64,000 nt of DNA. Origin: a candidate division FCPU426 bacterium (GTDB lineage: Bacteria > Oederibacteriota > Muellerivitia > Muellerivitales > Muellerivitaceae). A program made the position numbers and the translations under genes. Below, one piece after another: positions 2,853-37,102 of the stretch. Location of the stretch: contig CAVYSE010000021.1 of the NCBI GenBank assembly GCA_963771075.1, positions 1-64,000 on the forward strand, read 5' to 3'. The notes below the pieces were generated by a model. That model was not told the DNA's origin. It was given only the letters and a program-made list of their open reading frames with translations, and ran no database searches. Position 1 is the first letter of the stretch. Every line of letters begins with the position of its first letter.

Positions 2853-2880
2853 TGTCCACGACGGGGACCGATCGCGGACA
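2853..2880 (+). repeat. Array site R1
   Basis: TGTCCACGACG GGGACC GATCGCGGACA. Confidence 0.9.
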
Positions 2881-2907
2881 GGTAAAAGACGTATGAAGGT
2901 GTAATGA

Positions 2908-3282
2908 ATGGAACATTTTTTTCTGTGGTTGAAGAAATTTTTCACAATTGACAGGTCGGCGATTTTTGTGGTTTTGGTAGTTATATTTTATTTCTTGATC
3001 CATATGAGCGCGGAACTTAATGATTGGTATACAAAGTGCGCGGCTCGATTACCGGTACCAACAACATTTTGTTTTTCAATTGGCGAACAGCTTCAATTTT
3101 TTAATCATTCGTGGGTGGTTTTACTAACTCTTCCCTTGTATGTCGGGGTGGTCTTTTTTTGCGAGAAGGTGATAAAAAAACTAGTTTGGTTGAAATAAGG
3201 ATTGATTATTATTTTTTTGGGCATTGTTTTAGGGCTAATAACCATTGCCATGTATATCCCCATGTTTCAGGTGGTGGAATAA
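2908..3282 (+). pseudogene. Small membrane protein with PilC/GspF-like motifs and an internal TAA at 3196-3198
   Basis: ORF 2908-3198 continues in frame after the stop as GLIIIFLGIVLGLITIAMYIPMFQVVE*, resembling the PilC/GspF C-terminus. It has an LPVPT motif, and its final stop overlaps site R2. Confidence 0.55.
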
Positions 3283-3309
3283 GTCCATGATGGGGACCCG
3301 CATTGGACA
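3282..3309 (+). repeat. Array site R2
   Basis: AGTCCATGATG GGGACC CGCATTGGACA. Confidence 0.9.
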
Positions 3310-3378
3310 GGATAATTTTAATGATCGAGCCGTTTCTAAAGAGTTGAAATCCAGGTTGGATATAGAAAGAATTCTTTC

Positions 3379-4152
3379 ATGACCACCCGAATCCTTAAAC
3401 CCTGGCCCGTTCTGGCGGACGTCATCGCTTCCATTGATCTTCATGACACCGCAACCACTGGCGAAGGTCCCGCCTATTCGGTTTTGCCCTCGCCCCAATT
3501 TGTCATGGGGTTTCAATTGCAAGGCCGTTTGAAAACGCTTCGTCCCGGGAGCGAAACAACCCTTACTCCCAGCGGCGTTACCGGACTCCAGGGGCAAAGC
3601 CGTCTTTATCAAGGGGTCGGCAAGACCCGGTCCATCCTGGTGCGTTTCAAACCCTGGGGGCCTTCCTGCTTTTTACCGGGGCCCATGGGCGAGCTGATGA
3701 ACGAAAGTGTGGACCTGCGCCAGTTGTGGGACCCGCAAGAAGTCAGCGACCTCGAAGATAAGCTTTATCACTCTACGCCCGGACCGGCGGTGGTCCTCTT
3801 GCAAACTTTTCTGGTCAAGCGCCGCCGGTTTCAAACCATCGATCCTCTGGCGCTCAACGCCGCCCAACGGTTCATCCTCAAAGCGGGTAATGTTTTGATC
3901 GGACGCATGGCCGGGGAACTGGCCACCACCGAACGTTCCCTCGAAAGACGGTTCCAGCAATGGATCGGCACCAGCCCCAAACGGTTCGCGGCCCTGCTGC
4001 GTTTCCAAAAAAGCATCCAAATGCTTCAGGAGGGGAAGGATGGGACAGAGGTGGCCTATGAGTGCGGCTATTTCGACCAGGCCCATTTCATCCAGGAATT
4101 CAAGAATTTTACCGGGGTTTCACCCCAAAAATATAAAACCGGGCTGCTTTAA
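3379..4152 (+). CDS. AraC-family transcriptional regulator
   Basis: C-terminal double HTH (SLERRFQQWIGTSPK...VAYECGYFDQAHFIQEFKNFTGVSP). Confidence 0.92.
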   Translation: MTTRILKPWPVLADVIASIDLHDTATTGEGPAYSVLPSPQFVMGFQLQGRLKTLRPGSETTLTPSGVTGLQGQSRLYQGVGKTRSILVRFKPWGPSCFLPGPMGELMNESVDLRQLWDPQEVSDLEDKLYHSTPGPAVVLLQTFLVKRRRFQTIDPLALNAAQRFILKAGNVLIGRMAGELATTERSLERRFQQWIGTSPKRFAALLRFQKSIQMLQEGKDGTEVAYECGYFDQAHFIQEFKNFTGVSPQKYKTGLL

Positions 4153-4237
4153 GATTGTCGGATTTTTCCAATAGGTTTTTTCCACACCTACCTAAAATTA
4201 TTCAAGTTGGTTTATTACATCAAACAGGAGGACGCAA

Positions 4238-4900
4238 ATGAAAACGGAACAAAGGGCAGAGGTTTTGATCAATGTGCACAAGGGACTACGCCGGGGGCTG
4301 TTGGGCCTGGCGCTCAAGCTGGGCGCCTTGGACTGGCAGGATCAGGAAGAGGTCAAGGCGGCCGGGGAAGATTTCGCCACCATGCTTCACTTTTTAATGG
4401 AACACGCGGCCAACGAGGACCAGATCCAATTTCCGATGCTGGAAAATAAGGTGCCCGGGGCCGCCTGTCGGGAAATGGAAGAACACCATCGTCTGGAAGC
4501 GCAGATCGACGATTTGGAAAAACAATGGGCGCGGCTGGCTGTGGAAACGGATAAATCCAAGCCGGGTTACGCCTTCTATCTGGCCTATAACCGGTTCCTT
4601 TCGGATTATCTGGCCCACATGGACCACGAAGAGACGGATCTGACCGACGCCCTTTATCAAAATTTCACCGACGCTGAAATCGAGGCGGAGTTCAAAAAAA
4701 TCATCGCCCGCACCCAGCCCGCGGACATGGGCATGATGCTGGGCTATATGATCCCGGGGATGAATCCGGCGGAGAGGGCCCAGTTCCTTTCCAAGCTTCA
4801 AAAGACCGCGCCGGCGCCGGTTTTTGAGAAAGTGAAAGGATTGGCCCAAAAGGTTCTGTCTTCCGGCGATTGGGAAAAGCTATCAGCTCGGTTAGGATAA
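4238..4900 (+). CDS. Hemerythrin/HHE cation-binding domain protein
   Basis: VHKGLRR, HAANED, EEHH and HMDHEE motifs; AGGAGG RBS. Confidence 0.85.
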   Translation: MKTEQRAEVLINVHKGLRRGLLGLALKLGALDWQDQEEVKAAGEDFATMLHFLMEHAANEDQIQFPMLENKVPGAACREMEEHHRLEAQIDDLEKQWARLAVETDKSKPGYAFYLAYNRFLSDYLAHMDHEETDLTDALYQNFTDAEIEAEFKKIIARTQPADMGMMLGYMIPGMNPAERAQFLSKLQKTAPAPVFEKVKGLAQKVLSSGDWEKLSARLG

Positions 4901-4928
4901 CCGTGATGGGGAAAACCGCTACTAATGT

Positions 4929-4956
4929 TGTCCACGACGGGGACCTGTAGTGGACA
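4929..4956 (+). repeat. Array site R3
   Basis: TGTCCACGACG GGGACC TGTAGTGGACA, flanked by GT...AC. Confidence 0.92.
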
Positions 4957-5002
4957 ACTAAAAACCCTATGAGGGATAGTCTAATGATAAGAAACCCAAA
5001 CC

Positions 5003-5031
5003 TTGACGACTCCCTATTTATTGTATATACT
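5003..5031 (+). promoter_or_regulatory. Sigma70-type promoter of brnTA, probably leaderless
   Basis: TTGACG-17 bp-TATACT, with the ATG 6 nt after the -10 box. Confidence 0.65.
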
Positions 5032-5037
5032 AATATT

Positions 5038-5319
5038 ATGAGATTTGATTGGAACTCCGCTAAGGACGAAGCTAACTTTAAGAAACACGGCGTTTCATTC
5101 AAAACAGCTATCTCGGCCTTTGATGATCCATATGCCCTGGTAGCCGCTGACCCTAAGCATTCCACCACTGAATCCAGGGAATGGTTGATTGGAGAAGCTG
5201 ACGGTGGAAAGGTTCTGGTGGTAGTTTTCACCAAACGCTTACAAGGCCAGATCTGTCGCATCATCAGCGCAAGGCCGGCAAGCCGTCGGGAAAGGAACCG
5301 TTATGAAGAGCTCAAATGA
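5038..5319 (+). CDS. brnT: BrnT-family toxin
   Basis: MRFDWNSAKDEANFKKHGVSF...RIISARPA signature. Confidence 0.92.
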   Translation: MRFDWNSAKDEANFKKHGVSFKTAISAFDDPYALVAADPKHSTTESREWLIGEADGGKVLVVVFTKRLQGQICRIISARPASRRERNRYEELK

Positions 5320-5593
5320 ATTTCCGTTTCACAAGGCAAGAAGGTTGACTCCCGGAGAAGTGGAGAAGAACCGTCAGGCGATCGAACATCACACTGGCAA
5401 ACCGCGCCGTCCGCGTGGCCGACCCGCTAAAGAGCCTCATGAGCTTTATTTGCCGGTTTCCATTCGCCTTAATCCGAAAACCTTAGAATGGGCCAAGAGA
5501 ATTGGCCGACAAAGAGGCATTGGATACCAAACCGTCATCAACGAAGCCTTATTGAGTGTTGCCGGAGAAAAGAAATTTTCCCACGCGCATTAA
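5303..5593 (+). CDS. brnA: BrnA-family antitoxin
   Basis: RGRP...VSIRL...GYQTVIN motif; overlaps brnT. Confidence 0.88.
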   Translation: MKSSNEFPFHKARRLTPGEVEKNRQAIEHHTGKPRRPRGRPAKEPHELYLPVSIRLNPKTLEWAKRIGRQRGIGYQTVINEALLSVAGEKKFSHAH

Positions 5594-5607
5594 GGCTTTC
5601 CGGAGCT

Positions 5608-5635
5608 TGTCCACGACGGGGACCCATCGTGGACA
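5608..5635 (+). repeat. Array site R4
   Basis: TGTCCACGACG GGGACC CATCGTGGACA. Confidence 0.92.
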
Positions 5636-5655
5636 GATGAAAAGAAAGGAATCGA

Positions 5656-5992
5656 ATGAATATAAAAGGATTTAAAGATTCTATTTGTAGACTTCCTCCA
5701 AAATATTCTTTTTGTGGGATTGTTGGCCATAATTTCAATTGTTTATGTCAAAAATGCCCTTGAATTAGATCACCATGGAAGAATCGGGAATGGAATTTTT
5801 TGGTTGATATGGGGATCGGTTTTTTATTTATTGGTTTGTATTAAGCCTTTAATGAAATGGATGTACCAGATGCAAATGGATTGGATTAAGAAAAAGAAAA
5901 CTTTTGAAGACTTTCAAAAAGATGGCCAAAAAGCCTTTTACACCGCCGTCTATTTTGCTCTCATTAATTTTATTTTAGCTTTTTTCTATTAA
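5656..5992 (+). CDS. Hypothetical membrane protein, probably frameshifted in the T-run near 5709-5713
   Basis: An ATG at 5656 after an AAGGA RBS is out of frame with the hydrophobic ORF 5714-5992. Confidence 0.55.
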
Positions 5993-6021
5993 AGGAAATT
6001 TTGCAATTACCCATTTAAAGT

Positions 6022-6049
6022 TGTTCACGACGGGGATCCGGATTGGACA
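6022..6049 (+). repeat. Array site R5
   Basis: TGTTCACGACG GGGATC CGGATTGGACA. Confidence 0.88.
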
Positions 6050-6104
6050 AAGATTTTGTAAGACTTAGCCGCTTTTTTTAAGGTTTAATTTATTCGGAGG
6101 CTTT

Positions 6105-7016
6105 TTGAACTCTTTTCTTATCATTCTTACCTTTTTATCAGGACTTTCCGTGCAGGCCTATTTTTTTACCCAGGGATTACCCAAACCATCCGAAAGGCGA
6201 CGCTGGCTACTCTTAGTTTTTTCTATTTCCCTATTATTGGTCCTTCTTCCAATGGACATCCCCGATCTTATAGGGGGAAAACCATGGGTCGAAATCGCTT
6301 ATAGCTCATTCATCGTTTTGACTTTGGTTTTTTGCCTTGTGACCACCGGCATTTTATTCATGGACAAAACCGTACCTTCAATTGGCCAAGCAAATATACT
6401 TTCTTTTACGATGATTTTTTGGCTTGTTTGTTTTAAACACTTTGACGGTTTTGGGTTAGGGACATCATTTTTAATTTCTTTCGGCAGTGTCGCCACTCTT
6501 GGGACACTGCTCGTTATTCTTTTAAAGGCGCAATTGAATTTTTTAGGAAAACTTTTCTTTTACAGTTGGTTTTTGTTTATCAATGTTTATCTTTGTAGTT
6601 TCCAGGTTCTTTTAGGAGATTTTAGGCTAGTGGATATGGATAGGGGATGGGAATTCCTGGGTCATTACCACTATCTATCCGCGTTCTTTTCAGGAATGGC
6701 GATCCTGTTCTTTACTGTCTATGGATTTTATTTTTCCCTGGCCTTGGGATCCCTCGTCAAATTGGCCTTTAAGGGGAGCCGACAAGCCAAAGCGAAGGGT
6801 GGTAAAAAATGGGAAGATGCGGAAATGATGATAAGCCATCTTTCGGACTATCAAATTGGCATAAAAGAAGCGCTTCTCATCATACTTTTTCAAGGCGGTC
6901 TTTATTTGTTAAATGAATGGCATCCTTTTTTCTCAGTGCCGTTGCTGGTTAATTTTTCGATCGTCGTCTTGCCATTTGTTTTAAGATGGATTTTCCAATC
7001 CATTTCCAAACTATAA
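6105..7016 (+). CDS. Hypothetical multi-pass membrane protein
   Basis: 303-aa hydrophobic AT-rich ORF; GGAGG RBS before a TTG start. Confidence 0.8.
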   Translation: MNSFLIILTFLSGLSVQAYFFTQGLPKPSERRRWLLLVFSISLLLVLLPMDIPDLIGGKPWVEIAYSSFIVLTLVFCLVTTGILFMDKTVPSIGQANILSFTMIFWLVCFKHFDGFGLGTSFLISFGSVATLGTLLVILLKAQLNFLGKLFFYSWFLFINVYLCSFQVLLGDFRLVDMDRGWEFLGHYHYLSAFFSGMAILFFTVYGFYFSLALGSLVKLAFKGSRQAKAKGGKKWEDAEMMISHLSDYQIGIKEALLIILFQGGLYLLNEWHPFFSVPLLVNFSIVVLPFVLRWIFQSISKL

Positions 7017-7019
7017 GGT

Positions 7020-7047
7020 TGTCCATGACGGGGACCCGTATTGGACG
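7020..7047 (+). repeat. Array site R6
   Basis: TGTCCATGACG GGGACC CGTATTGGACG. Confidence 0.88.
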
Positions 7048-7140
7048 ATCCTTTTTAACCCAAAGAGTTAAAATGGGTTCCGAAGGTCTGCCAGAGGGGG
7101 AGGTGGACAAACCATATTCGAAGTGAAAAAAGGAGAATCT

Positions 7141-7647
7141 ATGCTGGCAAAAAAAATCGCCTTGGGATTCGGAATCGCGTTGGTTTTTCCATTGCTTATT
7201 CATTTCGGGGTCAGCTCATTTGTTCATGAACCGAAATGGAAAGATTACCACAAGAATGATTATCAAGATTTGAGCGCAATGCCTCAAGCGGAACGATCCG
7301 CGGCCATTGAGGAAAGAAACAAAAAGCAAAAAGAAAATCAGGACGCGTTCGATAAAGCGAAATCTAGTTTTGACCAAATATTGTTTTGGGTCGCGCTCCC
7401 GATCGGGTTGATCGCCATAGTTGTTGGCGCTTTTCTCGCAGCTCAAGGCATCGGGACCGGCCTCGTTTTCGGAGGAATTTTTACGCTCATTGACGGCTAT
7501 GGGAATAACTGGAATGACATAGATGATAGGCTCAAATTTTTGTCATTACTCGTCACTTTCATCATTCTCATTTTCGTTGGCTATAAGAAAATTGAAAACA
7601 AAGCAAAAAAAGACGCAGCTCCCCAAAACCCGCCCAACATTAGCTGA
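7141..7647 (+). CDS. Hypothetical membrane protein
   Basis: AAGGAG RBS, ATG at 7141, about four hydrophobic segments. Confidence 0.8.
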   Translation: MLAKKIALGFGIALVFPLLIHFGVSSFVHEPKWKDYHKNDYQDLSAMPQAERSAAIEERNKKQKENQDAFDKAKSSFDQILFWVALPIGLIAIVVGAFLAAQGIGTGLVFGGIFTLIDGYGNNWNDIDDRLKFLSLLVTFIILIFVGYKKIENKAKKDAAPQNPPNIS

Positions 7648-7662
7648 ATCGTAAACGAACCT

Positions 7663-9639
7663 GCAGAGTAGAGCGCTGGCGCGTATGCCTTAGAGTACGG
7701 TGGCGAATCCAACCCTTTCGGATTGGGCCTCAGTCCGGCTCTCATCACCACGTTTCCAGCGCCCCCTCATCAAACCGTACGTGACCTTTTCGATCATACG
7801 GCTTTCCGACAACCTTTCAACCGGCAGCATTCAAGGCAAAAGCTGGAATCCAGTTCAAACCAAGGCGTTTCACTTCCTCGATCGACCATGTTCGTCCTTC
7901 CCAGGCGTACTTATGCCTCCGAAACAAAGTCAGCCTTTCGAGTACGTAAAATTGAAGCTTGGAAAAGTATGGCTGGCTGTCCCCAATTCGGAAATAGTTG
8001 GCCCACCCCCTTAACACCGGGTTCAAAGCCTTCGCTACATCCTCCATTGGAGATAAGAGCCGCTCTCGGCCCGCCGTCATCTGCTTCACTTTCTCGGCGA
8101 TTTTCTTCATGGCCTTCCGGCTCGGCCAGCTCAGGCAACAGGTCTTACCCAATCCTACCACCGGCATACCTACTCGAAAGTGGAACCCAAGGAAGTCAAA
8201 CCCTTCCTTCCCAGGCCCCATTTCCACCAGCCGTGTCTTTTCGGGGTGCAGTTCAAGCCCTAGTCGTCCCATCAATTCCTTGATGACTTCCAGGCTCTTT
8301 TCCGCATGGGCTTGGCTTCCGCACAACACCACAAAATCGTCGGCGTAGCGCACCAGCCTACCCAGTTTCCTGTGCCTCTTATTCCAAACCTTGTCCAGCA
8401 AGTGAAGGTAAACATTGGATAACAGCGGTGAGATCACCCCGCCTTGCGGTGTCCCTCGGAGAGTCGGCGTAAGCCTTCCTTCCTCAAACACACCCGCCTT
8501 CAGCCACCCTCGGATCAGTTTCAAAACCTTCCGGTCACTGATCCTCTGGCGCACCAGCACCATCAGTTTGTCGTGGTCGATGGAATCGAAATACTTCCGA
8601 ATATCTCCATCCACCACCCATCTGTACCCGCCATTGATCCACTTCTTGATCTCCCGGTGGGCCTGCTGGGCTCCGCGTTTTGGCCGAAATCCAAACGAGC
8701 CTTCCAGAAAGTCCGCCTCAAAGATGGGTTCCACCACCTTCCGGCAAGCCGCTTGAACTACCCGATCCCGAATTACCGGGATTCCCAACGGTCTCTTGCT
8801 TCCATCAGGCTTGGGTATTTCCACTCGTCTCACAGGTTTAGGCAGATACTTCCCAGCTTTGAGTTCTTCCTGGATGCCCTTCAGGAATGGAATAATTCCC
8901 ACCTTCTCTTCGATCCATTCCAGCGTTTCCCCGTCCACTCCTCCTTGGCCTTTATTAGCCTTCACCTGTTTCCATGCCGCTGTCAGGACATCCCATCGGG
9001 TCATCCTGTCATGCAGTACATGAAATCTCCGGCTTGGGCTCCTCTTGGCCGCTCGGTATAGCGCCCTTTGAAGGGTTCGCGCCTTGTCTTCGGAGTTGTT
9101 GGCCCTTTGGGGCATGCTCCAGCGCCTCCCTTTTGAAGGTTGCTTGGTTGAAGCAGGGGTCCTTCCCTCCAGGTGGTTTTGTTGTCCACCCTTCACAGGT
9201 ATTGTGACCCCCTCCGACTTCCTCCCGCCCTTGCCCCTTTTCGGTTTTAGCCTTATAGCGGCAAGTCTTTTGGCGGGTAGGATCTCCCAGGTTGCTTGCA
9301 AAGCCTTTCCAGCATTCCGTTCCCCATACGCCGGAGGACTTGCCCCGCTTGCTCCAGATTCTTCAGCGGGATCGTGGCCTTCGCCGGTAGACACGCGGCT
9401 CGGCATCCTCTTGCACCTTTCGGTGTCCCATTCACGACGCGGCAGGATTCACTTGATGTTGCGGACTGCTAGATTGTTCCCTCACTGAATGAGGTTTATG
9501 ACCCCGTTTCGGGCAGAACCTCTCGGTCCTACGCCGGGGGCTGACTTCCAGGCTCTCTGGCGATTACCTGGTCAGGATTTGGGCTGGCCCTCTTCGGCCT
9601 ACTCCCTCACCTGCTGGCTCTACAAACCTTCGCTGGCAC
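7663..9639 (-). mobile_element. Group II intron (ribozyme plus RT/maturase)
   Basis: 5' end GTGCCAGCG at 9639; domain V GAAAGCCGTATGATCGAAAAGGTCACGTACGGTTTGATGAGGGG just after the RT stop; domain VI ending ...GCGCTCTACTCTGC near 7663 (3' end uncertain by 1-2 nt). Confidence 0.9.
7817..9115 (-). CDS. ltrA: Group II intron reverse transcriptase/maturase, no endonuclease domain
   Basis: NKGQGGVDG, RPLGIP, GTPQGGVISPLLSN, RYADDF and maturase RGWANYF motifs. Likely start MPQRANN at 9115. Confidence 0.95.
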   Translation of the reverse strand: MPQRANNSEDKARTLQRALYRAAKRSPSRRFHVLHDRMTRWDVLTAAWKQVKANKGQGGVDGETLEWIEEKVGIIPFLKGIQEELKAGKYLPKPVRRVEIPKPDGSKRPLGIPVIRDRVVQAACRKVVEPIFEADFLEGSFGFRPKRGAQQAHREIKKWINGGYRWVVDGDIRKYFDSIDHDKLMVLVRQRISDRKVLKLIRGWLKAGVFEEGRLTPTLRGTPQGGVISPLLSNVYLHLLDKVWNKRHRKLGRLVRYADDFVVLCGSQAHAEKSLEVIKELMGRLGLELHPEKTRLVEMGPGKEGFDFLGFHFRVGMPVVGLGKTCCLSWPSRKAMKKIAEKVKQMTAGRERLLSPMEDVAKALNPVLRGWANYFRIGDSQPYFSKLQFYVLERLTLFRRHKYAWEGRTWSIEEVKRLGLNWIPAFALNAAG

Positions 9640-9641
9640 GA

Positions 9642-9669
9642 TGTCTACGATGGGGACCCATCGTGGACA
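9642..9669 (+). repeat. Array site R7, next to the intron 5' end
   Basis: TGTCTACGATG GGGACC CATCGTGGACA. Confidence 0.9.
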
Positions 9670-9775
9670 GGTTTAACGACCTGTCATGGACGGTGTTTTT
9701 AACCGATTTGATGTATTAAACTTCATTGTGATATACACCATCCAGATTTAATATGGTGTATCAGGAGGTGAATCC

Positions 9776-9979
9776 ATGGCACGCACAAATATCGTCCTTG
9801 ACGACGAATTGATCCGGCAAGCGGTTCGATTGACGGGGGCAAAGTCCAAACGCGAGGCGGTCGATATCGCCTTGAGAAAGCTCATCAAACAGGCGGGGCT
9901 CTACCAAAAATTCCTCAAGCTTGAGGGGAAACTGCATTGGGAAGGCGACCTGAAGCAAATGAGAAAAAGCAGGGTATGA
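9776..9979 (+). CDS. vapB: VapB-type antitoxin
   Basis: MARTNIVLDDELI...SKREAVDIAL; translationally coupled to the PIN toxin. Confidence 0.88.
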   Translation: MARTNIVLDDELIRQAVRLTGAKSKREAVDIALRKLIKQAGLYQKFLKLEGKLHWEGDLKQMRKSRV

Positions 9980-10368
9980 TTGTCGTTGATTCATCGGTTT
10001 GGATTGATTATTTCAACCACCATCCTTCTCCTACCGCCGAGAAGTTGAAAACCTGTTTCGCCGCCGAAACCCCATTGGCTATTATTCCCATGGTTCTAAT
10101 GGAAGTATTATCCGGGTTTAAGTCCGACACGGATTTTAAAAAAGCTTTGGATTTCATGTTGGACTTGCCAATTATTCAAACCGGCCCCTCCGTTCACGTC
10201 AACGCAGCCCGGTTGTTCCGCCATCTTCGACAAAAGGGTATTACCATAAACGGTCATGGCGATTGTCTGATAGCCCAAGCTTGCATCGAAAACGGGGCTC
10301 ATCTTCTGGCGGTGGACAGTGACTTCGAACATATCGCACGCCATTGCTCTTTAAAACTAGCCCATTAA
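9976..10368 (+). CDS. vapC: VapC PIN-domain toxin
   Basis: MIVVDSSVWID...EVLSG...DCLIA...DSDF. Confidence 0.92.
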   Translation: MIVVDSSVWIDYFNHHPSPTAEKLKTCFAAETPLAIIPMVLMEVLSGFKSDTDFKKALDFMLDLPIIQTGPSVHVNAARLFRHLRQKGITINGHGDCLIAQACIENGAHLLAVDSDFEHIARHCSLKLAH

Positions 10369-10401
10369 TATTCAAGCCTGAAATTGAGACAAGGTTCAGG
10401 T

Positions 10402-10429
10402 TGTCCACGATGGGGACCCGGAATGGACA
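10402..10429 (+). repeat. Array site R8
   Basis: TGTCCACGATG GGGACC CGGAATGGACA. Confidence 0.92.
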
Positions 10430-10482
10430 AAGAAAAATGGATAATGGTTTGTCTGCCGAAGCCTTGGCGAAGGTAGTTGGCC

Positions 10483-11806
10483 TGATAACATGAAAAAGGC
10501 TGCAGAGCTCCAAGCGTAGAGCGTCTCCACTTAAGTGGGACGAGGCTCTAGGATAAACCCAGAGTCGAAAAGGCACTCACCTTTGCAGGTGGTGCAAAAC
10601 GCTTAGGAGGTGCAGCCGTGGGACAGTATATCGGAGTAGACCTACACCAGAAAACATCCTACGTCACGAGAGTGAATGAGAAAGGAAAGGTGCTGGAACA
10701 AGTCGATCTGAAGAACGACGCGGATACTTTAAAGGCTTATTTCAAGAAGCAACCCGTGAGTAGCCAGGTCGTAGTAGAAGCCACAGGTCATTGGTATCAC
10801 TTTTACGAACTCATCGAGGATCGATTCCCCAACCTGGTATTGGCCCACCCCCAAAAGGTCAAAGCCATAGCCTCGGCCAAGATCAAGACGGATAAAATTG
10901 ATTCGGGAATCCTGGCTCAACTTTTGCGGGTGGATCTGCTGCCACGAGCCTATGTGCCACCCCGAGAGATCCGCGACTTACGGGAAATCCTTAGGTACCG
11001 GGCTTCCCTGGTGCAATTGAGAACACAAGCCAAAAACCGGATGACTTCGGTCATGACCAAGGCGGGAATCGAACCCGTTACTAAAAACCGATTCGGAATA
11101 AAGAACTTCCGCGAACTTGCCACGGTAGGTACCCGGCCTTGCTACCGTTTGGAACTGGACGGATATATGGAAGTAATCCGGGAACTAGGCCAAGAGATCG
11201 CCAAATCAGAAGAGGTGATCAAGAAAATGGCAGCAGAAAGCCCGGAAGCCCAGCTGATGATGACCATGCCAGGCGTGGGTGCCTTTTCGGCTTTATTAAT
11301 TTTGAGCGAGATTGGGGATATTCGCCGGTTCCCGGACGCGGAACATCTATGTTCTTATGGTGGATTGGTCCCCAGTGTTCACGCATCAGGGGGAAAAAGC
11401 CACAACGGCCACATCACCAAACAGGGTTCTAAATGGATTCGCTGGATATTGGTTGAGAACTCGCTTCATGCCATTCGCAAAACCCGACGGTATGGGACCT
11501 TATACACGAGGGTGAAGAAGAAGCATGGGAATAACGCGGGACGAATAGCAGTAGCAAGGGCTATGCTGAAAAGCATCTTTCATATGTTACGAAAGAAGGA
11601 AGCTTTTGAGGACTGCCCGGCCAGCTCCGACGGGGTCTGACACAACCCGCAAGAGTTGAGGTCCTTGGCCTGATTGAGCGGCCGGGTCCAACGTTATCGT
11701 GCGGTGAAACAACCGCGAATAGGTGACTGACTTGTAGTCCTTTGAGACTCAGGTTGGACTTGGGGCCGTGATACTACGCTTTTGCCTGGACATTCTTTTT
11801 CATAGG
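10483..11806 (+). mobile_element. IS110-family element, IS1111-like
   Basis: Subterminal inverted repeats ATGAAAAAG (10490-10498) and CTTTTTCAT (11795-11803) flank the transposase, with ~160 bp of non-coding sequence on the right. Exact ends are inferred from IS1111 convention. Confidence 0.7.
10618..11640 (+). CDS. IS110-family transposase
   Basis: YIGVDLH, VEATG, KTDKIDS and GLVPSVHASG motifs. Confidence 0.95.
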   Translation: MGQYIGVDLHQKTSYVTRVNEKGKVLEQVDLKNDADTLKAYFKKQPVSSQVVVEATGHWYHFYELIEDRFPNLVLAHPQKVKAIASAKIKTDKIDSGILAQLLRVDLLPRAYVPPREIRDLREILRYRASLVQLRTQAKNRMTSVMTKAGIEPVTKNRFGIKNFRELATVGTRPCYRLELDGYMEVIRELGQEIAKSEEVIKKMAAESPEAQLMMTMPGVGAFSALLILSEIGDIRRFPDAEHLCSYGGLVPSVHASGGKSHNGHITKQGSKWIRWILVENSLHAIRKTRRYGTLYTRVKKKHGNNAGRIAVARAMLKSIFHMLRKKEAFEDCPASSDGV

Positions 11807-11858
11807 TGACCCCGATTTTTCGTTGGTGTTTGTTACTTTCATTTATGAGGGTGGTTAT

Positions 11859-12383
11859 ATGCTTGATTTAACAAAACTTAAAAACTATTTATGGCGCCCA
11901 TTTGAAATTGAGAGCAAGCGCCCGGTTAAAACAATCCAAGACGGAATCTCTAAAAAGGTAATCAAAGAGATGTCGTTTCAATGGTTGCCTGATGAGAAGC
12001 TGAGGGGAAAATCGACTAACGGTCATTTTGAGATTTCTTATAAACCTCTTTCCTCATACTTTATGAGAGGCGCGGGCTCTTTGACAATGCGGGGTGTTAT
12101 CGAAAGCGAGGGAACGGGCAGCCGCATTTATGGCCATTTGCCCGGTCCGCCCTTTGCGGTTTATTTACTTTTGGCCATATGGATTGGTTTTTGTATCATG
12201 CTTTTAAATCAATTTATCCGAGAGGCTTTAGCCCATAATTTTGTTGCGTCAGAACAACTTCCGCTTTGTATCGTCGGACTTATCTTTCCAGGCATGGCGG
12301 TTATCATTTTTTTCTTTGATAGGGAAGCCAACAAGGCTGGCGAGGGGAAAATATTGGATTTGCTGAAAGCGATCGTCAAATAA
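11859..12383 (+). CDS. Hypothetical membrane protein
   Basis: ORF with two C-terminal transmembrane segments; GAGG RBS. Confidence 0.75.
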   Translation: MLDLTKLKNYLWRPFEIESKRPVKTIQDGISKKVIKEMSFQWLPDEKLRGKSTNGHFEISYKPLSSYFMRGAGSLTMRGVIESEGTGSRIYGHLPGPPFAVYLLLAIWIGFCIMLLNQFIREALAHNFVASEQLPLCIVGLIFPGMAVIIFFFDREANKAGEGKILDLLKAIVK

Positions 12384-12427
12384 TGACACAAAGGGGTCGG
12401 CCATTAACCATTTCGGAACGAATTAAT

Positions 12428-12455
12428 TGTCCACGACGGGGACCCTTCGTGGACA
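12428..12455 (+). repeat. Array site R9
   Basis: TGTCCACGACG GGGACC CTTCGTGGACA. Confidence 0.92.
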
Positions 12456-12502
12456 AAGAAAAGCTGTAGATTGAGCCGGGAAATATTTGAGGTGAAATAT
12501 TC

Positions 12503-12985
12503 ATGAATTATGTACCTGTTTTTGATGTTGGCCATGTCGGGGTCACCTATTGGTTTATAAAGTTTTGGGTGTTCTTGGTCGTTCCTGTTTTTTTAGGAAT
12601 TTGGGGGTTGGTGGTGGGTAGAAAATCCACCGTTTCCAGGCCGGTAAAGATTCTGTATTTAATTTTCTGGGTTATTTCATTTCTTTTTTGCGCTTACTCT
12701 CCAACCAGCGATTTTTTAAATCTTCGCGAGGCATTGTTGACTGGTAAATGCAGTGTTGTGGCAGGCGCTGTGACTGATTTTGTTCCAATGCCTGGTGAAG
12801 GGCACAAAAATGAATCATTTAAAGTTCAAGGAACAGGTTTTTCCTATTCCGATTATTCACCCCAAGCAGGGTTTAACAATTCTTCTTCCCATGGTGGTCC
12901 GATTAAAGAAGGCCTTAAAGTTAGGATTTCTTATTTGACTGAAAATGGAGAAAATGAAATCGCTAAACTTGAAATCGTTAATTGA
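12503..12985 (+). CDS. Hypothetical membrane protein
   Basis: GAGGTG RBS; two N-terminal transmembrane segments, then a soluble beta-rich domain. Confidence 0.8.
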   Translation: MNYVPVFDVGHVGVTYWFIKFWVFLVVPVFLGIWGLVVGRKSTVSRPVKILYLIFWVISFLFCAYSPTSDFLNLREALLTGKCSVVAGAVTDFVPMPGEGHKNESFKVQGTGFSYSDYSPQAGFNNSSSHGGPIKEGLKVRISYLTENGENEIAKLEIVN

Positions 12986-13013
12986 ATAATTCAGTGGGGC
13001 GGTTCTGAACTGT

Positions 13014-13041
13014 TGTCCACGAAGGGGACCCGTATTGGACA
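13014..13041 (+). repeat. Array site R10
   Basis: TGTCCACGAAG GGGACC CGTATTGGACA. Confidence 0.92.
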
Positions 13042-13072
13042 ACCAAAAAATGGTTTATTTGGAAAATTTTAA

Positions 13073-13606
13073 ATGAGACCACCTGATATTATCGAAACGA
13101 CCCGACTTCGATTGAGGCCCCCTGAAATTGCCGATGCGGTGTCCATTTTTGAAAGTTACGCCCAGGATCCCGAAGTTGTGAAATTTTTAACCTGGCACCC
13201 TCACAAAAACGTCAAAGAAACCCAAACATTTCTTAAAGGTGTTTTGGATAGGGCTCAAAATGCCACCCGATTTCCCTATGTGATAACCCGATTAACAGAC
13301 GGCCAATTTCTCGGAATGTTCGAGTTGAGGTTGGATGGGCACATGGCTGACGCGGGGTACGTCCTTGCGAAAGCCCATTGGGGAAAAGGTTATATGACCG
13401 AAGCGGTAAAAGTCTTTGTGGAGTGGAGTCTCGCACAAGAGAGCATTTTCAGATTTTGGTCAATCTGCGACATCGAAAATCCAGCTTCTGCCAGGGTCAT
13501 GGAAAAAGCCGGAATGAAGCTTGAGGGAATTTTGCGTCGACGAATCATTCATCCAAATGCAAGTAAGGAACCCAGGGATGTATATTGTTATTCAGTAGTT
13601 AAATAG
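13073..13606 (+). CDS. GNAT N-acetyltransferase, RimJ/RimL type
   Basis: IETTRLRLRP, HWGKGYMTEA and ENPASARVMEKAGM motifs. Confidence 0.92.
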   Translation: MRPPDIIETTRLRLRPPEIADAVSIFESYAQDPEVVKFLTWHPHKNVKETQTFLKGVLDRAQNATRFPYVITRLTDGQFLGMFELRLDGHMADAGYVLAKAHWGKGYMTEAVKVFVEWSLAQESIFRFWSICDIENPASARVMEKAGMKLEGILRRRIIHPNASKEPRDVYCYSVVK

Positions 13607-13615
13607 AAAAAGCGT

Positions 13616-13643
13616 TGTCCACAACGGGGACCCGGATTGGACA
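13616..13643 (+). repeat. Array site R11
   Basis: TGTCCACAACG GGGACC CGGATTGGACA. Confidence 0.9.
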
Positions 13644-25633: not shown

Positions 25634-28600
25634 TCAACGCAGGAGGAGGATTTTACGGATGAATTTTTGGGATCCGCCGCCTGAAAAGGTGACCTTTAAA
25701 TAATAAAGCCCGCTTGAAGCTTGATTCCCGAATTGGTCCAGCCCGTCCCAGGAGAGGTAGCCATAACCGTTCAAAGCAACGGTTCCCCACCTGATTTTCC
25801 TGAAGCCCGTGGTGAAAACGGACCATTCCGCGGAACCCTGGTCCGGATCATAAACATCGACGATGATCGGTTTGCCGCCGTTTGAGGGGTTCGGGAAGGG
25901 GGCCGAAACCCAAACGGACGCTTGGGGAGTAAGGGTGGGGAAAGGCGTCAGGCTTGGGACGGGCGTGTCGACCGGGGTCAAGGTAGCCGTGGGCGAAATC
26001 GTGGGGCTGGGGGTGGGGGTTAAGGACCTCGTCATGGTCCAAGTCGGTGTCGGGGTTTGGGTCGCTGTGGGCGTCGTCGTCCGGGTATCGGTCGCCGAGA
26101 AAGTGGGGGTCGGGGTGAAGGATGGCGTATTCGAATTGGTTTCGGTCGCGGTTGCGGTGTTTGTAAACCCAATGGTGGAGGTGGGGGTCGGGGAGAATGT
26201 CGGTGTCGTCGTACGGGTCGAGGTGAAACCCGGGGTCGGCGACCCGGAGGGTGTTGGAGTCGGGCTGGGAGAAAAGGTGAAGTAAGGGGTATTCACGGGT
26301 GTGTCCGTAATCGTGGAGTGTGGGGTAGGGCTCCAAGTGACGGTATTGATCACCGTTGGGGTAAGGGTGGGGGTGGAAGTCACCGTTAAAGTGAGGGTTT
26401 GGGTTGAAGTAAAACTCGCGCTAGGCGTAGAAGTGTAAGTCGCGGAAGGGGTGGAGGAAGGCACAGGATACGCCGTCAGTGTGGGGGTCAGGGTCAAGGT
26501 GGGTTGCAAAGTCGCCGTGGTTGAGTTGACCGGTGTCGGGGTTTGAGTGGAACTGAGGAGGACCGTTGGGGTCCAAGTAAAACTGTTGGTCAAGGAAGCG
26601 GTGGTCGTCGGCGTAGCGCTCCCCGTAGAGGTTGGGGTTGAATTTGGAGTTTGGGTGCGTGAAAAGGTGGATGTGGGTGAATCCGTATATGTATTCGTCG
26701 AGGTCGCAGTCGAAAATGGCGTATTCGTTAAGGTGACCCCAGGCGTATTGGTCCGGGTGAGCGTAGGGGTTGAAGTCGTGGAAAAGACGGGACTGGGGGT
26801 CAGGGTGAATGTGGAAGTGACCGTTTGGGAAAGGGTTGAGGTCGCCGTCAGGGTAAGAGTAGGGGTGATTACGGGAGTATGGGTATTCGTCAAAACCGTG
26901 CTCGGGGTCGGTGAAACCGTAACCGTTCCGGTGAGGGTAGGGCTGGAAGTGAGGGTATAGGTTTTTGTGGAGGTTTGGGTCAAGGTCGGGGTAACCGAAT
27001 TGGTTAAGGACGCGGTCAAGGTAAAGGTGGCCGTGTTTTGGGGAGTATTCGTCCGGGTGGAAGTGAAGGTGGATGTCACTGAAAAAGTGGGAGTGGGCGT
27101 CCCCGTTGGAATGGGAGTGGCCGTCAGGGTGGGGGTCAAGGTGGAGATAACGGTGGCCGTCCGGGTGGGAGTTAGGGTGAAAGGCGGGGTTGGGGTAAAG
27201 GTCAAGGTGGATGAAAAGGTAAAGGTAGCGGTTGGGGTCGGCGTATTGGAACGGGTAGCGGTCCAGGTGGAAGAATGGGTTGGGGTGGGACTCTGGGTGA
27301 AGGTGCGCGTGGGGGTGGGGGTGCCGGAGGGGGTTGGGGAAAAGGTCATCGTGGGGCTTGTCCCGCAATTCACCGTGGGGGTAGTGAGAGGTGTCGGGCT
27401 GGGAATGGGCGTGCAGGCCACGGCCCCGCAGGGTGAATTCACGTCGTAGGCGTGTTTCGCGGCCCAGATACAGTTGGCCCTCATATAATAAGGCGCCCGA
27501 ATATTGGCAAGGCCCGTGGTCCATGCCTCGGGCGTGCGGAACCACATTTGCCCCAGGTTCCAGACGCAATTGTAGAGGCTGTTCCCGATGGAAACCCCCT
27601 GGGTAAACATGCCCTCTTGGATCATGCCCGCGACCGCACCCCAAGTGGTGCCCACCCAGGCTTCCTGGGTTTGGGAAGTACTGGTATCGATCGCCCCCGC
27701 CGAGGTCATGACATTGACCACGCCATGGGTTCCCGTGTCGAATTTGGAGTAGTTATTATTGAAAACCGCCTGCCAGGCGCTGACCGCGTGCGACGCGGGA
27801 ACCACATCCGCCAGGCCGCAGGCTTTGGCGTACCATTGGCCGCAAAGTTGGTCGCTCATGATCCGCGCCACCCCGGTCACTCCGCCGGCCCCGCTCCCCG
27901 TGTCGATGTTGTAGTAGTTCCCCGTCGAGTCCCAAAGGTTGGTTTCGAAATCGGCCTGCCCGAGGGTCAGCCACGACTGGTAGGTGTTGGCCAGGGCGGC
28001 GTTTCCTTCCGCGGTCGCGATGGCTTTCCCAGCCTCACAAGCGGCGAGATAGAGGCTACCGCAATAGGACGTCTCACCGGTTAGCCCTAAATTGTCGTAG
28101 GTTTGGTCCACTCCGGTGGATATGGGGAGGTTATAGGTGACCCCGCCGGAAACGCACTGGCTATGGACCTTGGTCATCGCGGTTTGCACCGAAGGCCAGC
28201 AATAGTTCAGGAAGGCCGTATCGCTGCTGCCGGTGAGTTCCCAATCACGGTAAACCATGAGCACCAATTTGGAATTCAGGTCTTTCCAGGTCGTGGAGTC
28301 CCGGTAGGTGTAATCGTTCCACGCCGTGAAGACGTCGTTCAGGCTCCCGAAATCGTGGGCGCAGGTTCCGATGGCGGCAGGCCGGGGAAGGGTTTGGGAG
28401 GGGCTCACCACCACGCTGTCGCTGAACTGCTCGACCTCTTGTTTATCGATATTGGGCCACATTTGGGCCAGCGCCCAGGAACCGTAGAACCGGACGTCCG
28501 AGGTGCCGTAAAAAGCGTAGATATAGGATTCCAGGCTGCTGAACATGTCGGGGCCGGCGTCATAAGAGGTGTTTCCATATTGGCCCGCTTCCCAGATCGT

Positions 28601-29698
28601 GCCGCCGATCACGTAATAATAAAGCTCATTGAACAGCATTTGCTTGAACCAGTCCGGGTAGGGCCCGCCCAGGACTCCCCCTTGCCAGGTATCGATCGAG
28701 GATTCCCAAGTCGCATAATTATTCAAGGCGTCGTTGGCGATGCTGAAGGAATTCAATCCCGTCCGGCCATAGGTACGCGTGTATTCCCTGTACCATTGGG
28801 CCCCGGTTCCGGGCTGGCAAAGCGGGATATCCCAGGCGATCGTTATTGGGATCTTGACCGACTGCCCCGGAGCGAGCGTTACCTTGAACGCGATTCCCCC
28901 GATGGTATTGCTTCCCACCGTGTTGCTCAAAAGGCCCGCGGTATTGAAGGCCGTTTGAAGCGTCGCCACGGTCGCGGCGGATTCATAGGTGATGGATACC
29001 CCCGCCGAGGATTGGGCGGCCAGGGTAAACTCCCCCTGGCTTTTCGAAGTGGCGCTCCCGCCCGTACGGGTTAAAACGATTCCTGTATTATTACCCGAGG
29101 TGGTCACGGAAGCGCTCGCCCCTCCGAAGGTATTGTCCCAGGTCACCATGATGGCCACATCGGTGGAAGTGCAGGTCGGGTTCGAGAGGTCCCACTCGTA
29201 GATCCCCTCCGGGTAGCTGCTGCGGTTGTCGTCGCCCGGAATCATCGGCGTGAATTGGGTGACCCGAGCCTTACAGGAAAATTTGGACCCGTAATAATCC
29301 ACCCAAGACTTGGGATAAAGGGAGTAATAATTGGCTTGGCCCGATCCAAGGGTTGTGGCGTTCAACAGATTGGTCGCCGCCGTCTGCCCGGAGGGTTTCT
29401 GGTACATGTAAAAATGGCAATTGCTATCCAGGGTATAAGGATCGTTGTTGGTCCAGGCCGCGGGAGAGGTGGCGATATTGAGCCGGCTTAAATAAAAATC
29501 GCCGGCGAAATTCCAAGTATAAGACCCGGCCCCAAAACCGCCGCTCGGAGCGCCATCCAGATAACCGCCGGCGTTGATATCCCGGCTCCATGCTTGAGAG
29601 GGTATGTTGGTGGTGGCGAGGGCGGTTGAACTTATGAAAAACAGGCAGGAATATATGAGGAAATAACGATATTGCTTAAAGATTAATTCTCTCGCCAA
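25634..29698 (-). CDS. Secreted GH116 glycoside hydrolase with Thr/Pro linker and C-terminal sorting/Ig-like domain
   Basis: GGFGAG, FNELYY, LESYIYAFYGTSDV, WKDLNSK, DQTYD and FRTPEA (GH116-type motifs); ~500-aa T/P/S tract; C-terminal PFPNP...GLYY. Confidence 0.85.
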   Translation of the reverse strand: MARELIFKQYRYFLIYSCLFFISSTALATTNIPSQAWSRDINAGGYLDGAPSGGFGAGSYTWNFAGDFYLSRLNIATSPAAWTNNDPYTLDSNCHFYMYQKPSGQTAATNLLNATTLGSGQANYYSLYPKSWVDYYGSKFSCKARVTQFTPMIPGDDNRSSYPEGIYEWDLSNPTCTSTDVAIMVTWDNTFGGASASVTTSGNNTGIVLTRTGGSATSKSQGEFTLAAQSSAGVSITYESAATVATLQTAFNTAGLLSNTVGSNTIGGIAFKVTLAPGQSVKIPITIAWDIPLCQPGTGAQWYREYTRTYGRTGLNSFSIANDALNNYATWESSIDTWQGGVLGGPYPDWFKQMLFNELYYYVIGGTIWEAGQYGNTSYDAGPDMFSSLESYIYAFYGTSDVRFYGSWALAQMWPNIDKQEVEQFSDSVVVSPSQTLPRPAAIGTCAHDFGSLNDVFTAWNDYTYRDSTTWKDLNSKLVLMVYRDWELTGSSDTAFLNYCWPSVQTAMTKVHSQCVSGGVTYNLPISTGVDQTYDNLGLTGETSYCGSLYLAACEAGKAIATAEGNAALANTYQSWLTLGQADFETNLWDSTGNYYNIDTGSGAGGVTGVARIMSDQLCGQWYAKACGLADVVPASHAVSAWQAVFNNNYSKFDTGTHGVVNVMTSAGAIDTSTSQTQEAWVGTTWGAVAGMIQEGMFTQGVSIGNSLYNCVWNLGQMWFRTPEAWTTGLANIRAPYYMRANCIWAAKHAYDVNSPCGAVACTPIPSPTPLTTPTVNCGTSPTMTFSPTPSGTPTPTRTFTQSPTPTHSSTWTATRSNTPTPTATFTFSSTLTFTPTPPFTLTPTRTATVISTLTPTLTATPIPTGTPTPTFSVTSTFTSTRTNTPQNTATFTLTASLTNSVTPTLTQTSTKTYTLTSSPTLTGTVTVSPTPSTVLTNTHTPVITPTLTLTATSTLSQTVTSTFTLTPSPVFSTTSTPTLTRTNTPGVTLTNTPFSTATSTNTYTDSPTSTFSRTQTPNSTPTSTGSATPTTTASLTNSFTWTPTVLLSSTQTPTPVNSTTATLQPTLTLTPTLTAYPVPSSTPSATYTSTPSASFTSTQTLTLTVTSTPTLTPTVINTVTWSPTPHSTITDTPVNTPYFTFSPSPTPTPSGSPTPGFTSTRTTTPTFSPTPTSTIGFTNTATATETNSNTPSFTPTPTFSATDTRTTTPTATQTPTPTWTMTRSLTPTPSPTISPTATLTPVDTPVPSLTPFPTLTPQASVWVSAPFPNPSNGGKPIIVDVYDPDQGSAEWSVFTTGFRKIRWGTVALNGYGYLSWDGLDQFGNQASSGLYYLKVTFSGGGSQKFIRKILLLR

Positions 29699-29970
29699 AT
29701 GGGTAACCTTGATGAAACTTTTTTAAACTTATTAAAAATTTACCATACTCAAACCAAATCTTGGATTGATTCGCCTTTGAAAAATATCGAAAAAGCGTTT
29801 TATACCGGTGTTTTGAACATTAAACCTTTTTTCCTTTACATTATTTTAGATAATTTATTTACAGCATTAACTGGTTTGTCATTTTTTAATAAAGTTCAAT
29901 CTTTTTCATTAGTTTAAACACACATTCAAGGCTTGATGAATAGAAGATGAAAATGTCTCACGTCCAGCAA

Positions 29971-32043: not shown

Positions 32044-32249
32044 GCGGAAATTCGCCTTTCAGTAAGCAAAATAATTCGTAAACGGCTAAACGTTAAAATG
32101 CAAGTTTTATACCCTTTTTTAACTCATAAACGAATAAGCAACAAATGATTAATAAAGGATTTTAATGGGTTTCTTGTTTGAAAGTTATCTCGGGATTGAA
32201 ACTAAAATCGCAACTGTTTGAAAAGCCGACAAATTCAAATTAATTAGAC

Positions 32250-32283
32250 AAAAAAAGCGCTCTTGTTAAAAAAGCGCTTTTTT
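32250..32283 (-). terminator. Probable intrinsic terminator
   Basis: AAAAAAGCGCT...AGCGCTTTTTT hairpin with A/T tails, just downstream of the gene ending at 32309. Confidence 0.55.
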
Positions 32284-32308
32284 AATGCCGCCTCAATTTT
32301 AAATCTGA

Positions 32309-35300: not shown

Positions 35301-37102
35301 GCCGTCGTCGTGTCATTGTTGGAAGCATAGGTTGAACCACCCGTCACCGCGCCTCCGTTATATTCATAATAGGGGCAACCAGGAAGTGGGGTCGGCGTTG
35401 TAGTGGCTGTAGGAGTTCCAGTAGCGGTAAAGGTGTATAGCGGAGTGGGGGTCCAAGTACGTGTTGTCGTGGCCGAGGGAGTCGAAGTAGCGCAAGGGCC
35501 AAAGAAACCTAAATCATCAACAAAAATCGTTTGCGTTCCCGAGGGCATTCCCGCCCCCGTCGTAAAGTCAATTTCCATGACGGAAGTATTCGTAAAAGTG
35601 GATACCGCTTTGAAATTGGAAGTTGGAATCAAAACTGATTGCCAAGAAGTGGTTATACCGCTTGGTAAAATGTACCTGTTAAGGTAACAGAAGTTGAATG
35701 ATCTTGGGCTGCTCGTTGAATCAACTAAATTAACCATGCAATTATTGATCGGAGCGCCGGTTGTAGCTGTAATCCAGAACTGTAAATAGGTGTATTGGGT
35801 CATGTCTAATAAGTTATGGTAAGGGGGGGCGACCGGATTCGCAGTAGCGTAATTGGCCCAATTCAGTCCGGTTCCTGCGTAATAGCTGTTCTAGTCCAAT
35901 TAAACGCGATTTCTAAACAATCCGTTCTTGAATGATATCGGATTTGGTTGTAATTCAGTATCGGTAGCGGAAGACGTCCATGTTTTAATGGTAGACAAAT
36001 CGGTAGTTGACGTATCCCCGTTGTAATAAATTGATTCGCAGCCCGACACGGTCGGGGTAGCGGTTGGAGTCGCGGTGACTGTGGGTGTACGAGTGGGGGT
36101 ATAGGTCTGGGTGGAAGTACCAGGCACAGGCGTATTGGTGTGGGTACTGGTGGGCCCGGTTACACAACTCGCAAATTGACTCGTGCTAAACCAAGGGTCC
36201 TGGCCGCTATTAGCATTAGGACCCCACTGACCGCTATTTGCGAAAACGGTTACCGGGGCGAGGCCTGATTCATAACTAGTTAGTTGGAAATAAGAAGTAT
36301 AACTTGAATAGGTGGGGTTCCCATTCCCGCCCCAGAAGAAAGGGAGATTATTACTTCCGCCGGCATCCGATGAACAAGCGGCAAATGGGCCCGTGGAACT
36401 GGTACTGTACCCAACCGACTTAATGGGCAAGGAAGCGTTGGCAAACATGATCGGGTTATACCCTGACTTCGCGCCATTATACGCAACTCCTATATTGCCA
36501 CCCGAGCCACTCACCGCGGTCAATATGCTCGCCGGACACACGACAAACCGCCAAGTTACGGTTGATCCTGAAAGGGTATTGGTTCCGGAATTGGATGGGA
36601 AGGAACCGCCCCCAGATAATGTGGAGTAGGCTGCGGTGGCAATATCCAAATGATATGAACCCACCCAACAATTATTGGCATTGTTCCCACCTTGTGGGCA
36701 CTCATCCACAATCACAACCGTTACGGATGCCCCATTGCTGGAATTATGTAATGCCGCGCAGGCCCCGCATGGAAATCCGCCCAAATGTCCACCATTTCCA
36801 CCCGAGGCGGCCGTATCGCCAAAACTATCACTGTCAATAGCCGCATAGGCATTTGAAGCAAAAGCGCCTGTCTCGGCGTAACCGCAAGCGGTTTCACCGG
36901 TTAAAGAGTATTCGGTCGGCTGGTTTTCCTCGTAAGTTATCGGGGCATCATTAGGGCAAAATTGGGGCGTAGCCAACAAGGTAGGAATAGCGACATAATT
37001 GGAATAGCTATAGGGTTGTGCGGCATTCAATCGGGATTGGAATAAAAATAAAAGGGCAAAAACCGAAACCCTTAAAAACGATATTTGGGTTTTATTTTTC
37101 AT
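32309..37102 (-). pseudogene. Large secreted expansin-like (DPBB) protein with two CBM-like repeats, a Thr-rich linker and the shared C-terminal domain; split by frameshifts near 35880-35950
   Basis: N-terminal ORF 35900-37102 has ACGY, CGAC, VDECP and HLDI expansin-type motifs. The gap reads CLEIAFNW / YYAGTGLNWANY in shifted frames, matching YFAGFGFNWAGY in ORF 32309-35803. Confidence 0.7.

Follow-up and report, generated by a model that had tools for sequence, protein, structure and literature searches.

A group II intron probably tuned to the arms of a repeated 26-bp palindrome in a candidate division FCPU426 genome

The intron beside site R7 and its boundaries

The window, which is the whole 64,000-nucleotide stretch of DNA that was analysed, contained an array of palindromic 26-bp sites, and a group II intron was located between the stop of a membrane-protein gene and R7, the seventh of the 11 sites (Table 1). 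Shuffled sequences gave 0.01 expected matches to the site. The minus-strand group II intron of the original prediction was borne out by two Rfam matches above the gathering threshold, RF02003 for domain I (9590–9454, minus strand, 60.9 bits) and RF00029 for domain V/VI (7806–7663, minus strand, 43.4 bits), and by the RT/maturase, which scored 422.9 bits with TIGR04416 (cut-off 300). The Pfam search of the RT returned RVT_1 and GIIM as the only matches and no HNH domain, in agreement with the predicted lack of an endonuclease domain. The AGC triad that had been read in domain V could also be located, and the two class C references have CGC at this place. The bulged A of domain VI is, from its position, a candidate branch point. 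A promoter scan gave 2 matches compared to 2.4 expected by chance, and no source of intron transcription was seen in it. Contigs of RNA run X15 covered the intron, which shows its presence only.

Table 1. Features of the intron, its exon-pairing elements and the surrounding array (positions in the window)
Feature	Position	Strand	Description
Site array	2854–13642	+	11 same-orientation sites between small accessory genes (AraC, hemerythrin, BrnT/BrnA, PIN toxin, GNAT, IS110)
Membrane-protein gene	7123–7647	+	Upstream in the array; intron lies between its stop and R7
IBS3	7662	−	A, first 3' exon base; A in 13/13 genome 3' ends and 23/23 relatives
Group II intron	7663–9641	−	1979 nt, starts UCGUG, ends UGC; one of 10 full genome copies, 99.4–100% identical
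Domain VI and 3' end	7663–7769	−	Bulged A at 7669, seventh from the end; penultimate G replaces A
Domain V	7772–7805	−	34 nt, AGC triad at 7803–7801
RT/maturase ORF	7817–9115	−	Within the intron; 432 aa, YADD, no endonuclease domain
Candidate EBS3	9326	−	U, intron position 316; best alignment column
EBS1	9387–9393	−	UGUCUAC; pairs 7/7 at all 12 junctions; delta G at 9394
EBS2	9427–9431	−	AUGGG; pairs with exon positions −13 to −9
Site R7	9642–9669		Palindrome 9643–9668, 12-bp arms, central GA, flanking T/A; minus strand is the 5' exon
IBS1	9642–9648	−	On site R7
IBS2	9650–9654	−	On site R7

The intron had been predicted to start with GTGCC at 9639 and to be separated from R7 by 2 nt. The EBS1 register, the relatives, the flanks and the empty alleles placed the true start at 9641 (UCGUG) instead; the 2 nt are the first bases of the intron itself, which abuts the palindrome. 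All 12 GTGCC ends in the genome were preceded by the identical two bases. Pairing between EBS1 and the exon was 6/6 for a start at 9641 compared to 3/6 for 9639, and the register of 9641 averaged 5.1/6 in 73 of 77 aligned homologues, shifts of 1–3 nt giving 1.8–3.0. This test began with 85 loci, of which 8 had no upstream DNA and a further 4 failed the motif checks, and L022 and L053 were kept in it although the locus end truncates their exons. In the column of 9641, the start of close relatives reads GCGUG or GUGUG. Restored flanks matched empty sites better with 9641 than with 9639 in 11/11 copies, the empty alleles of the sister introns L083 and L185, which are present in this genome, join in the 9641 register, and one contig from run X2 was an exact match over 7663–9641. 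Given a 3' terminus at 7663, the intron has a length of 1979 nt and reads UCGUG...GC. A 3-nt 5' extension (AUC ahead of GUGCC) was ruled out by alignment with canonical relatives. Alignment was used in place of a strict motif parser, which located the ends in only 9 of 106 loci. An empty allele was not found with the upstream membrane-protein gene as query in 30 family genomes, the contigs of four out of 21 runs contained no joint skipping the intron and no cover of the upstream gene, and a comparison of 34 distinct 3' exons against the genome and all loci gave no empty alleles of this genome's copies.

The consensus ends GUGYG...AY were not shown by the intron, which has U...GC instead of G...AC. 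The first and penultimate bases covaried in the close clade, with U/G in 14 introns, G/A in 9 and no exception among the 23, which are relatives and represent few events rather than 23. A non-Watson-Crick contact between the first and penultimate intron bases is known (PMC4238363), and the switch between U1 with penultimate G and G1 with penultimate A offers a natural test of the contact between the intron ends. As a general rule, however, the combination of U1 with penultimate G was rejected, as distant homologues with unreliable 3' ends gave 4 T/G, 2 T/A, 5 G/G and 14 G/A (p = 0.14), and a clade inserted at start codons has U1 with penultimate A.

Copies, exon pairing and orientation

The genome contained 10 full copies with different flanks, one ORF-less copy and fragments, and near-identity combined with unique flanks in the 10 full copies would imply recent mobility. 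At 12/12 5' junctions in the genome, the intron started one nucleotide past a site arm and always at an identical position of the 26-bp repeat, although the arms make up 210 of 8.8 million positions. Among 101 matches to a looser pairable target, 49 fell outside the listed sites and none of these 49 was occupied; besides pairing, therefore, protein contacts, the hairpin or selection may matter. An ORF-less version of the intron, about 800 nt long, was present at G000 C2:57253–58050, and genome G044 held at least nine near-identical copies of an ORF-less version, placed at sites. At G000 C26:140564–141470, two intron 5' halves face each other in an inverted duplication of part of the array, which is either a rearrangement or an assembly error.

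The pairing of EBS1 and EBS2 to the 5' exon, proposed as a check in the original prediction, could be confirmed at 12/12 junctions, with 7/7 positions for EBS1 and 4–5 of 5 for EBS2. Intron position 316 is probably EBS3, the weakest of the three EBS assignments. Among 30 introns with 3' ends read by eye, this position could pair with the opening base of the 3' exon in 27; it was substituted for the base preceding the EBS1 stem, which paired in only 9/25. EBS2 changed together with the variant of the site, in no fewer than five forms, including ACACC/GGTGT, CUGGG/CCCAG, CAGGG/CCCTG and AAGGG/CCCTT. In this register, EBS2 pairing was 2/5 in the L099-type sub-lineage and 0–1/5 in L184 and L185. 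These natural EBS2 variants provide a series on which the retuning to new targets can be tested directly.

Relatives from family genomes and one metagenome scan, all outside this genome, contributed 38 distinct junctions: 26 coincided with whole sites, another 7 with half or degenerate sites, and 5 remained below both thresholds. The same 5' exon motif was thus found in homologues, as a whole or partial site, at 33/38 junctions. The five remaining junctions comprised four at other targets and that of L082, a degenerate site matched by L082's own EBS2. Of these four, L083 and L156 occupied a different palindromic repeat, whereas a third target was used by L184 and L185, and EBS1 was altered in L083, L184 and L185. 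For L083, whose RT is 73% identical, EBS1 paired 7/7 and EBS2 5/5 with its repeat, empty alleles of which occur in this genome. Close homologues, which might have been expected at unrelated sequences had the position in the window been accidental, leave the site when their loops change, and unrelated targets were used by more distant homologues. Empty copies of the L083 repeat were located at G000 C7:100354, C7:111031 and C18:218377, two of the three at 2–3 kb from genes of 370-aa tyrosine recombinases; repeats of this type may be the ends of another mobile element.

Class C introns, including the IIC-attC introns, are not known to use EBS2–IBS2 pairing. Target recognition by the present intron could be explained by IIB-type pairing of EBS1 and EBS2, and probably of EBS3, and not by hairpin recognition of the IIC type, because EBS1 and EBS2 pair with the arm sequence and several relatives occupy half sites without an adjacent left arm.

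With sense defined as the GGGGACC strand of the site, 8 of the 12 copies in the genome were inserted in sense and 4 in antisense orientation. Among the whole-site junctions of the relatives, 24/26 were sense and 1/26 antisense, and antisense insertion, which the copy in the window had suggested as the rule, proved to be confined to a minority. Suitable arms were filled at 7/22 in sense compared to 4/47 in antisense (p = 0.03). The strand with positive residual third-codon G–C skew carried 11/12 copies, including all four antisense ones, and the copy on contig C6 was the exception to this placement on the G-rich strand. Suitable arms were occupied at 10/37 on the G-rich strand and at 1/32 on the other strand (p = 0.008, a value that overstates the difference since the copies cluster on 8 contigs). 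When only arms of the G-rich strand were considered, 6/13 sense and 4/24 antisense arms were filled (p = 0.12). The raw local GC skew was positive for 10/12 copies and negative for the copy in the window, where it was probably distorted by Thr/Pro-rich genes; the third-codon skew, which is a proxy for the replication strand, was adopted after this raw-skew result had been seen. Because of the clustering on 8 contigs, an origin that is not known and a measure chosen afterwards, these counts amount to moderate evidence that intron orientation tracks the replication (G-rich) strand. The sense preference in relatives may exceed what the strand alone explains. The bias towards the G-rich strand agrees with the preference for the lagging strand that PMC8919778 reports for F and unclassified types, as well as with the priming of endonuclease-less introns at the replication fork described in PMC4424553.

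Class of the intron and competing explanations

The RT tree consisted of 56 rows, including 16 references labelled from Tables S1–S2 of PMC3552965 and Table 3 of PMC8919778. The RT fell in a 40-row clade (support 91/94) together with g2, g3 and two 'Unclassified' references, inside none of their subgroups. Constraining the RT with class C was rejected (p-AU = 0.0188) in this tree, which contained no g4, g5, g6 or IIC-attC references and represented class C by two references only, neither of them an attC intron. The suspicion of a non-IIC intron was thus upheld by the RT phylogeny, by which the intron is placed among F-like/unclassified introns and not in class C. Membership in g2 of class F was rejected, since the RT has YADD and not the FADD given for g2 in PMC3552965, and lies outside g2 in the tree, as it does outside g3. 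Class F (g2–g5) and 'Unclassified' introns (PMC3552965, PMC8919778) resemble the present intron in lacking an endonuclease domain, in a length of 430–440 aa and in IIB-type exon pairing. The intron and its homologues matched the same Rfam domain I model.

RmInt1 and RmInt2 reportedly use EBS-guided, replication-dependent homing. The host loci of these class D introns are multicopy IS sequences, according to Table S1 of PMC3552965. Ordinary EBS-guided homing to a multicopy, harmless target would be common to them and the present intron, whereas the present target, which two other intron lineages use as well, is a short palindromic site and not an IS gene or end. IIC-attC introns (S.ma.I2 and relatives) insert antisense to the cassettes, into the bottom strand, according to PMC3001079 and PMC4424553. 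On that description, they share with the present intron the lack of an endonuclease domain and the specialisation on a repeated inter-cassette site, and the copy in the window is antisense and lies between a gene stop and a site. Lack of the endonuclease domain is also common to classes A, D, E and F, and the present intron is unlike the IIC-attC introns in its AGC instead of CGC, its 34-nt domain V and an EBS2 that covaries with the target, as well as in the use of both orientations with sense preferred, of a 26-bp non-attC site and of a genome in which no integron integrase was found. IIB introns in attC arrays are represented by UHB.I2 (CL1) and H.ha.F1/F2 (class E) (PMC7923331). UHB.I2 is similar to the present intron as a non-IIC intron inserted directly after a site, in sense, with a U start and penultimate G (UUGCG..GU). 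UHB.I2 and H.ha.F1/F2, however, occur in attC arrays as single or broken copies and their exons are poorly conserved, whereas here dozens of junctions were found to share a single position in a non-attC site, and EBS covaries with it.

The window most probably contains an active, endonuclease-less intron of the F-like/unclassified clade with exon-binding loops tuned to an arm of the approximately 105-copy 26-bp palindrome. By analogy with endonuclease-less introns, the intron RNA would splice out and bind its RT, reverse splicing would take place into single-stranded fork DNA, mostly the lagging-strand template, one base past an arm, and a nascent-strand primer would start the DNA copying of the intron. 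Because the repeat is palindromic, either arm would be usable, and the copy in the window belongs to the minority at the left arm, hence its antisense orientation to the array. Its insertion keeps the 26 bp whole and interrupts no gene, which likely permits spread. The predicted convergence of a non-IIC intron on cassette sites therefore stood as to target specificity (12/12 and 33/38 junctions) and fell as to mechanism, which is not that of the IIC-attC introns.

An alternative would be a convergence closer to the IIC-attC introns, in which the intron needs a folded single-stranded hairpin and inserts antisense to the cassettes; we regard it as improbable. IBS1 and IBS2 are both part of the stem, so that folding would hide them. 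Antisense copies were in the minority, class C is rejected by the tree, EBS2 varies in step with its target, and 7/38 junctions were at half or degenerate sites, two of these with another intron between the arms (either may have come first). In favour of the hairpin, most tested sites fold as DNA hairpins (z of −2.8 to −4.7 in 6/7 folds), no lone arm was occupied in this genome and the retargeted relative L083 is likewise located at a palindromic repeat. Unclassified and g6 introns often follow terminator hairpins (PMC8919778), which would agree with a need for the hairpin.

Multiplication mainly as DNA, with the copies carried in cassettes by the recombinase of the site after one or a few insertions, is still harder to maintain and may be considered very improbable. 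No two copies share a 3' exon, the sequences differing immediately past base one, whereas cassette copying would have carried the flank, and both arms are used; on the other side, the palindrome is spared by insertion, which favours cassette carriage, and the arm–flank linkage in duplicated site pairs is as expected for crossover at the centre. Given the unique flanks, this explanation is largely refuted for this genome. Chance placement of the intron beside a site is refuted by the 12/12 genome junctions and by the junctions of the relatives, even though 5/38 of the latter were below both thresholds and more distant homologues use unrelated targets, as the off-site relatives have different EBS sequences.

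For the intron with tuned exon-binding loops, the homing mechanism looks ordinary, and the shared, undescribed target looks to be the interesting part. It provides a clear case of non-class-C introns specialised on a cassette-separating repeat via plain base pairing; the literature that was found dealt with homing sites, terminators and attC, and with IIB introns in attC arrays as isolated copies only. The literature search, with most subscription papers outside its reach, returned no paper that describes this repeat or introns inserted at it. Michel et al. 2007 is said to treat specialised intron lineages and may bear on novelty.

A large sister clade was distributed over many phyla (L003, L005–L013, L015–L017, L021–L024 and many more of L001–L085). 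Its EBS1 reads CAU/CAC, insertion occurs directly after ATG or GTG, and the terminal AU of the intron and the next G recreate ATG. This clade looks like start-codon specialists outside the CL1 clade for which PMC12584367 reports such insertion.

The 26-bp site and other introns located in it

A total of 105 sites could be identified in the genome by weight matrix, and the reversed control gave 0. The site pattern search was positive in 21/24 family genomes and in 1/1 genome of the same order, compared to 0/15 other genomes of the phylum. A same-strand stop codon was located at most 60 nt ahead of 63/101 sites, against 13 for the opposite strand. The pattern of stop codon, about 17 bp and site that had been predicted was reproduced at R7, where removal of the intron restored a gap of 16 nt, but it is loose overall, with gaps spread over 3–60 nt under a 60-nt limit. 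The presence of the intron had also been taken as a sign that the sites are functional and structured; colonisation shows only that they are abundant, conserved and harmless targets, and their function rests on other evidence.

Sites of the attC type have a characteristic size and GTTRRRY/RYYYAAC boxes. Inspection of the 105 sites by eye revealed a fixed 26-bp palindrome without these boxes, which sets the sites apart from attC. No integron integrase passed in the genome (96.7% complete), where the best match to TIGR02249 scored 41.8 bits against a cut-off of 265. Where duplicated sites had upstream DNA in common, it was the right arm that differed (3 pairs); where the common DNA was downstream, it was the left arm (one set of 4), and the diverged copy at C21:2854 differed in both arms. 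A short serine recombinase of 277 aa with resolvase and recombinase domains (G000 C8:80002–80835) ends beside a site, and 3' fragments of it (C6:158404, C8:42239, C28:107693) are all beside the same site variant. In 5/6 loci, the short recombinase or its fragment was located 19–72 nt from a site and faced it; in the sixth, in genome G020, a site split by a g2 intron was read about 65 nt from the recombinase. Among the long recombinase relatives, 0/9 had a site within 400 nt, and a search with this query gave no short recombinase in G002, G003 and G005, which have sites. The short serine recombinase could itself be cargo. With two 12-bp arms around GA, the repeats resemble serine-recombinase sites and may be regarded as putative sites of this type, for which the arm linkage and the neighbouring recombinase are suggestive only.

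Two further intron lineages were located in the site. One, a g2 intron (L089 and L102, and a broken copy on contig C3), interrupts the site after base 10, and the other, the L100/L108 intron, after base 18; other g2 relatives (L087 and L103) sit elsewhere. The three intron groups at the site require three changes on the tree. In G044, L175 and L181 each showed one site with a g2-type intron end in the middle and the present intron family at the edge. As a tentative proposal, somewhat short of an even chance, the 26-bp repeats may be the places of crossover in an undescribed, integron-like cassette system that the short serine recombinase drives, and to these repeats three intron lineages were independently retuned, the present one sparing the site and riding in mobile cassettes and the other two splitting and probably disabling it. 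That three lineages have settled in this 26-bp site, each at its own position, makes it a candidate recombination site worth testing.

A small hairpin element was present in the left arm of eight sites (G000 C3:148660, 149259 and 347199; C5:98259; C11:133946; C26:73628, 134326 and 136819). The IS110 in the array occupies positions 10478–11802 of the window, and run X1 contained its empty allele with a joint from 10477 to 11803. Positions 25900–36100 of the window contained, on the minus strand, long coding regions with repeats of the Thr/Pro type, which probably code for large surface proteins.
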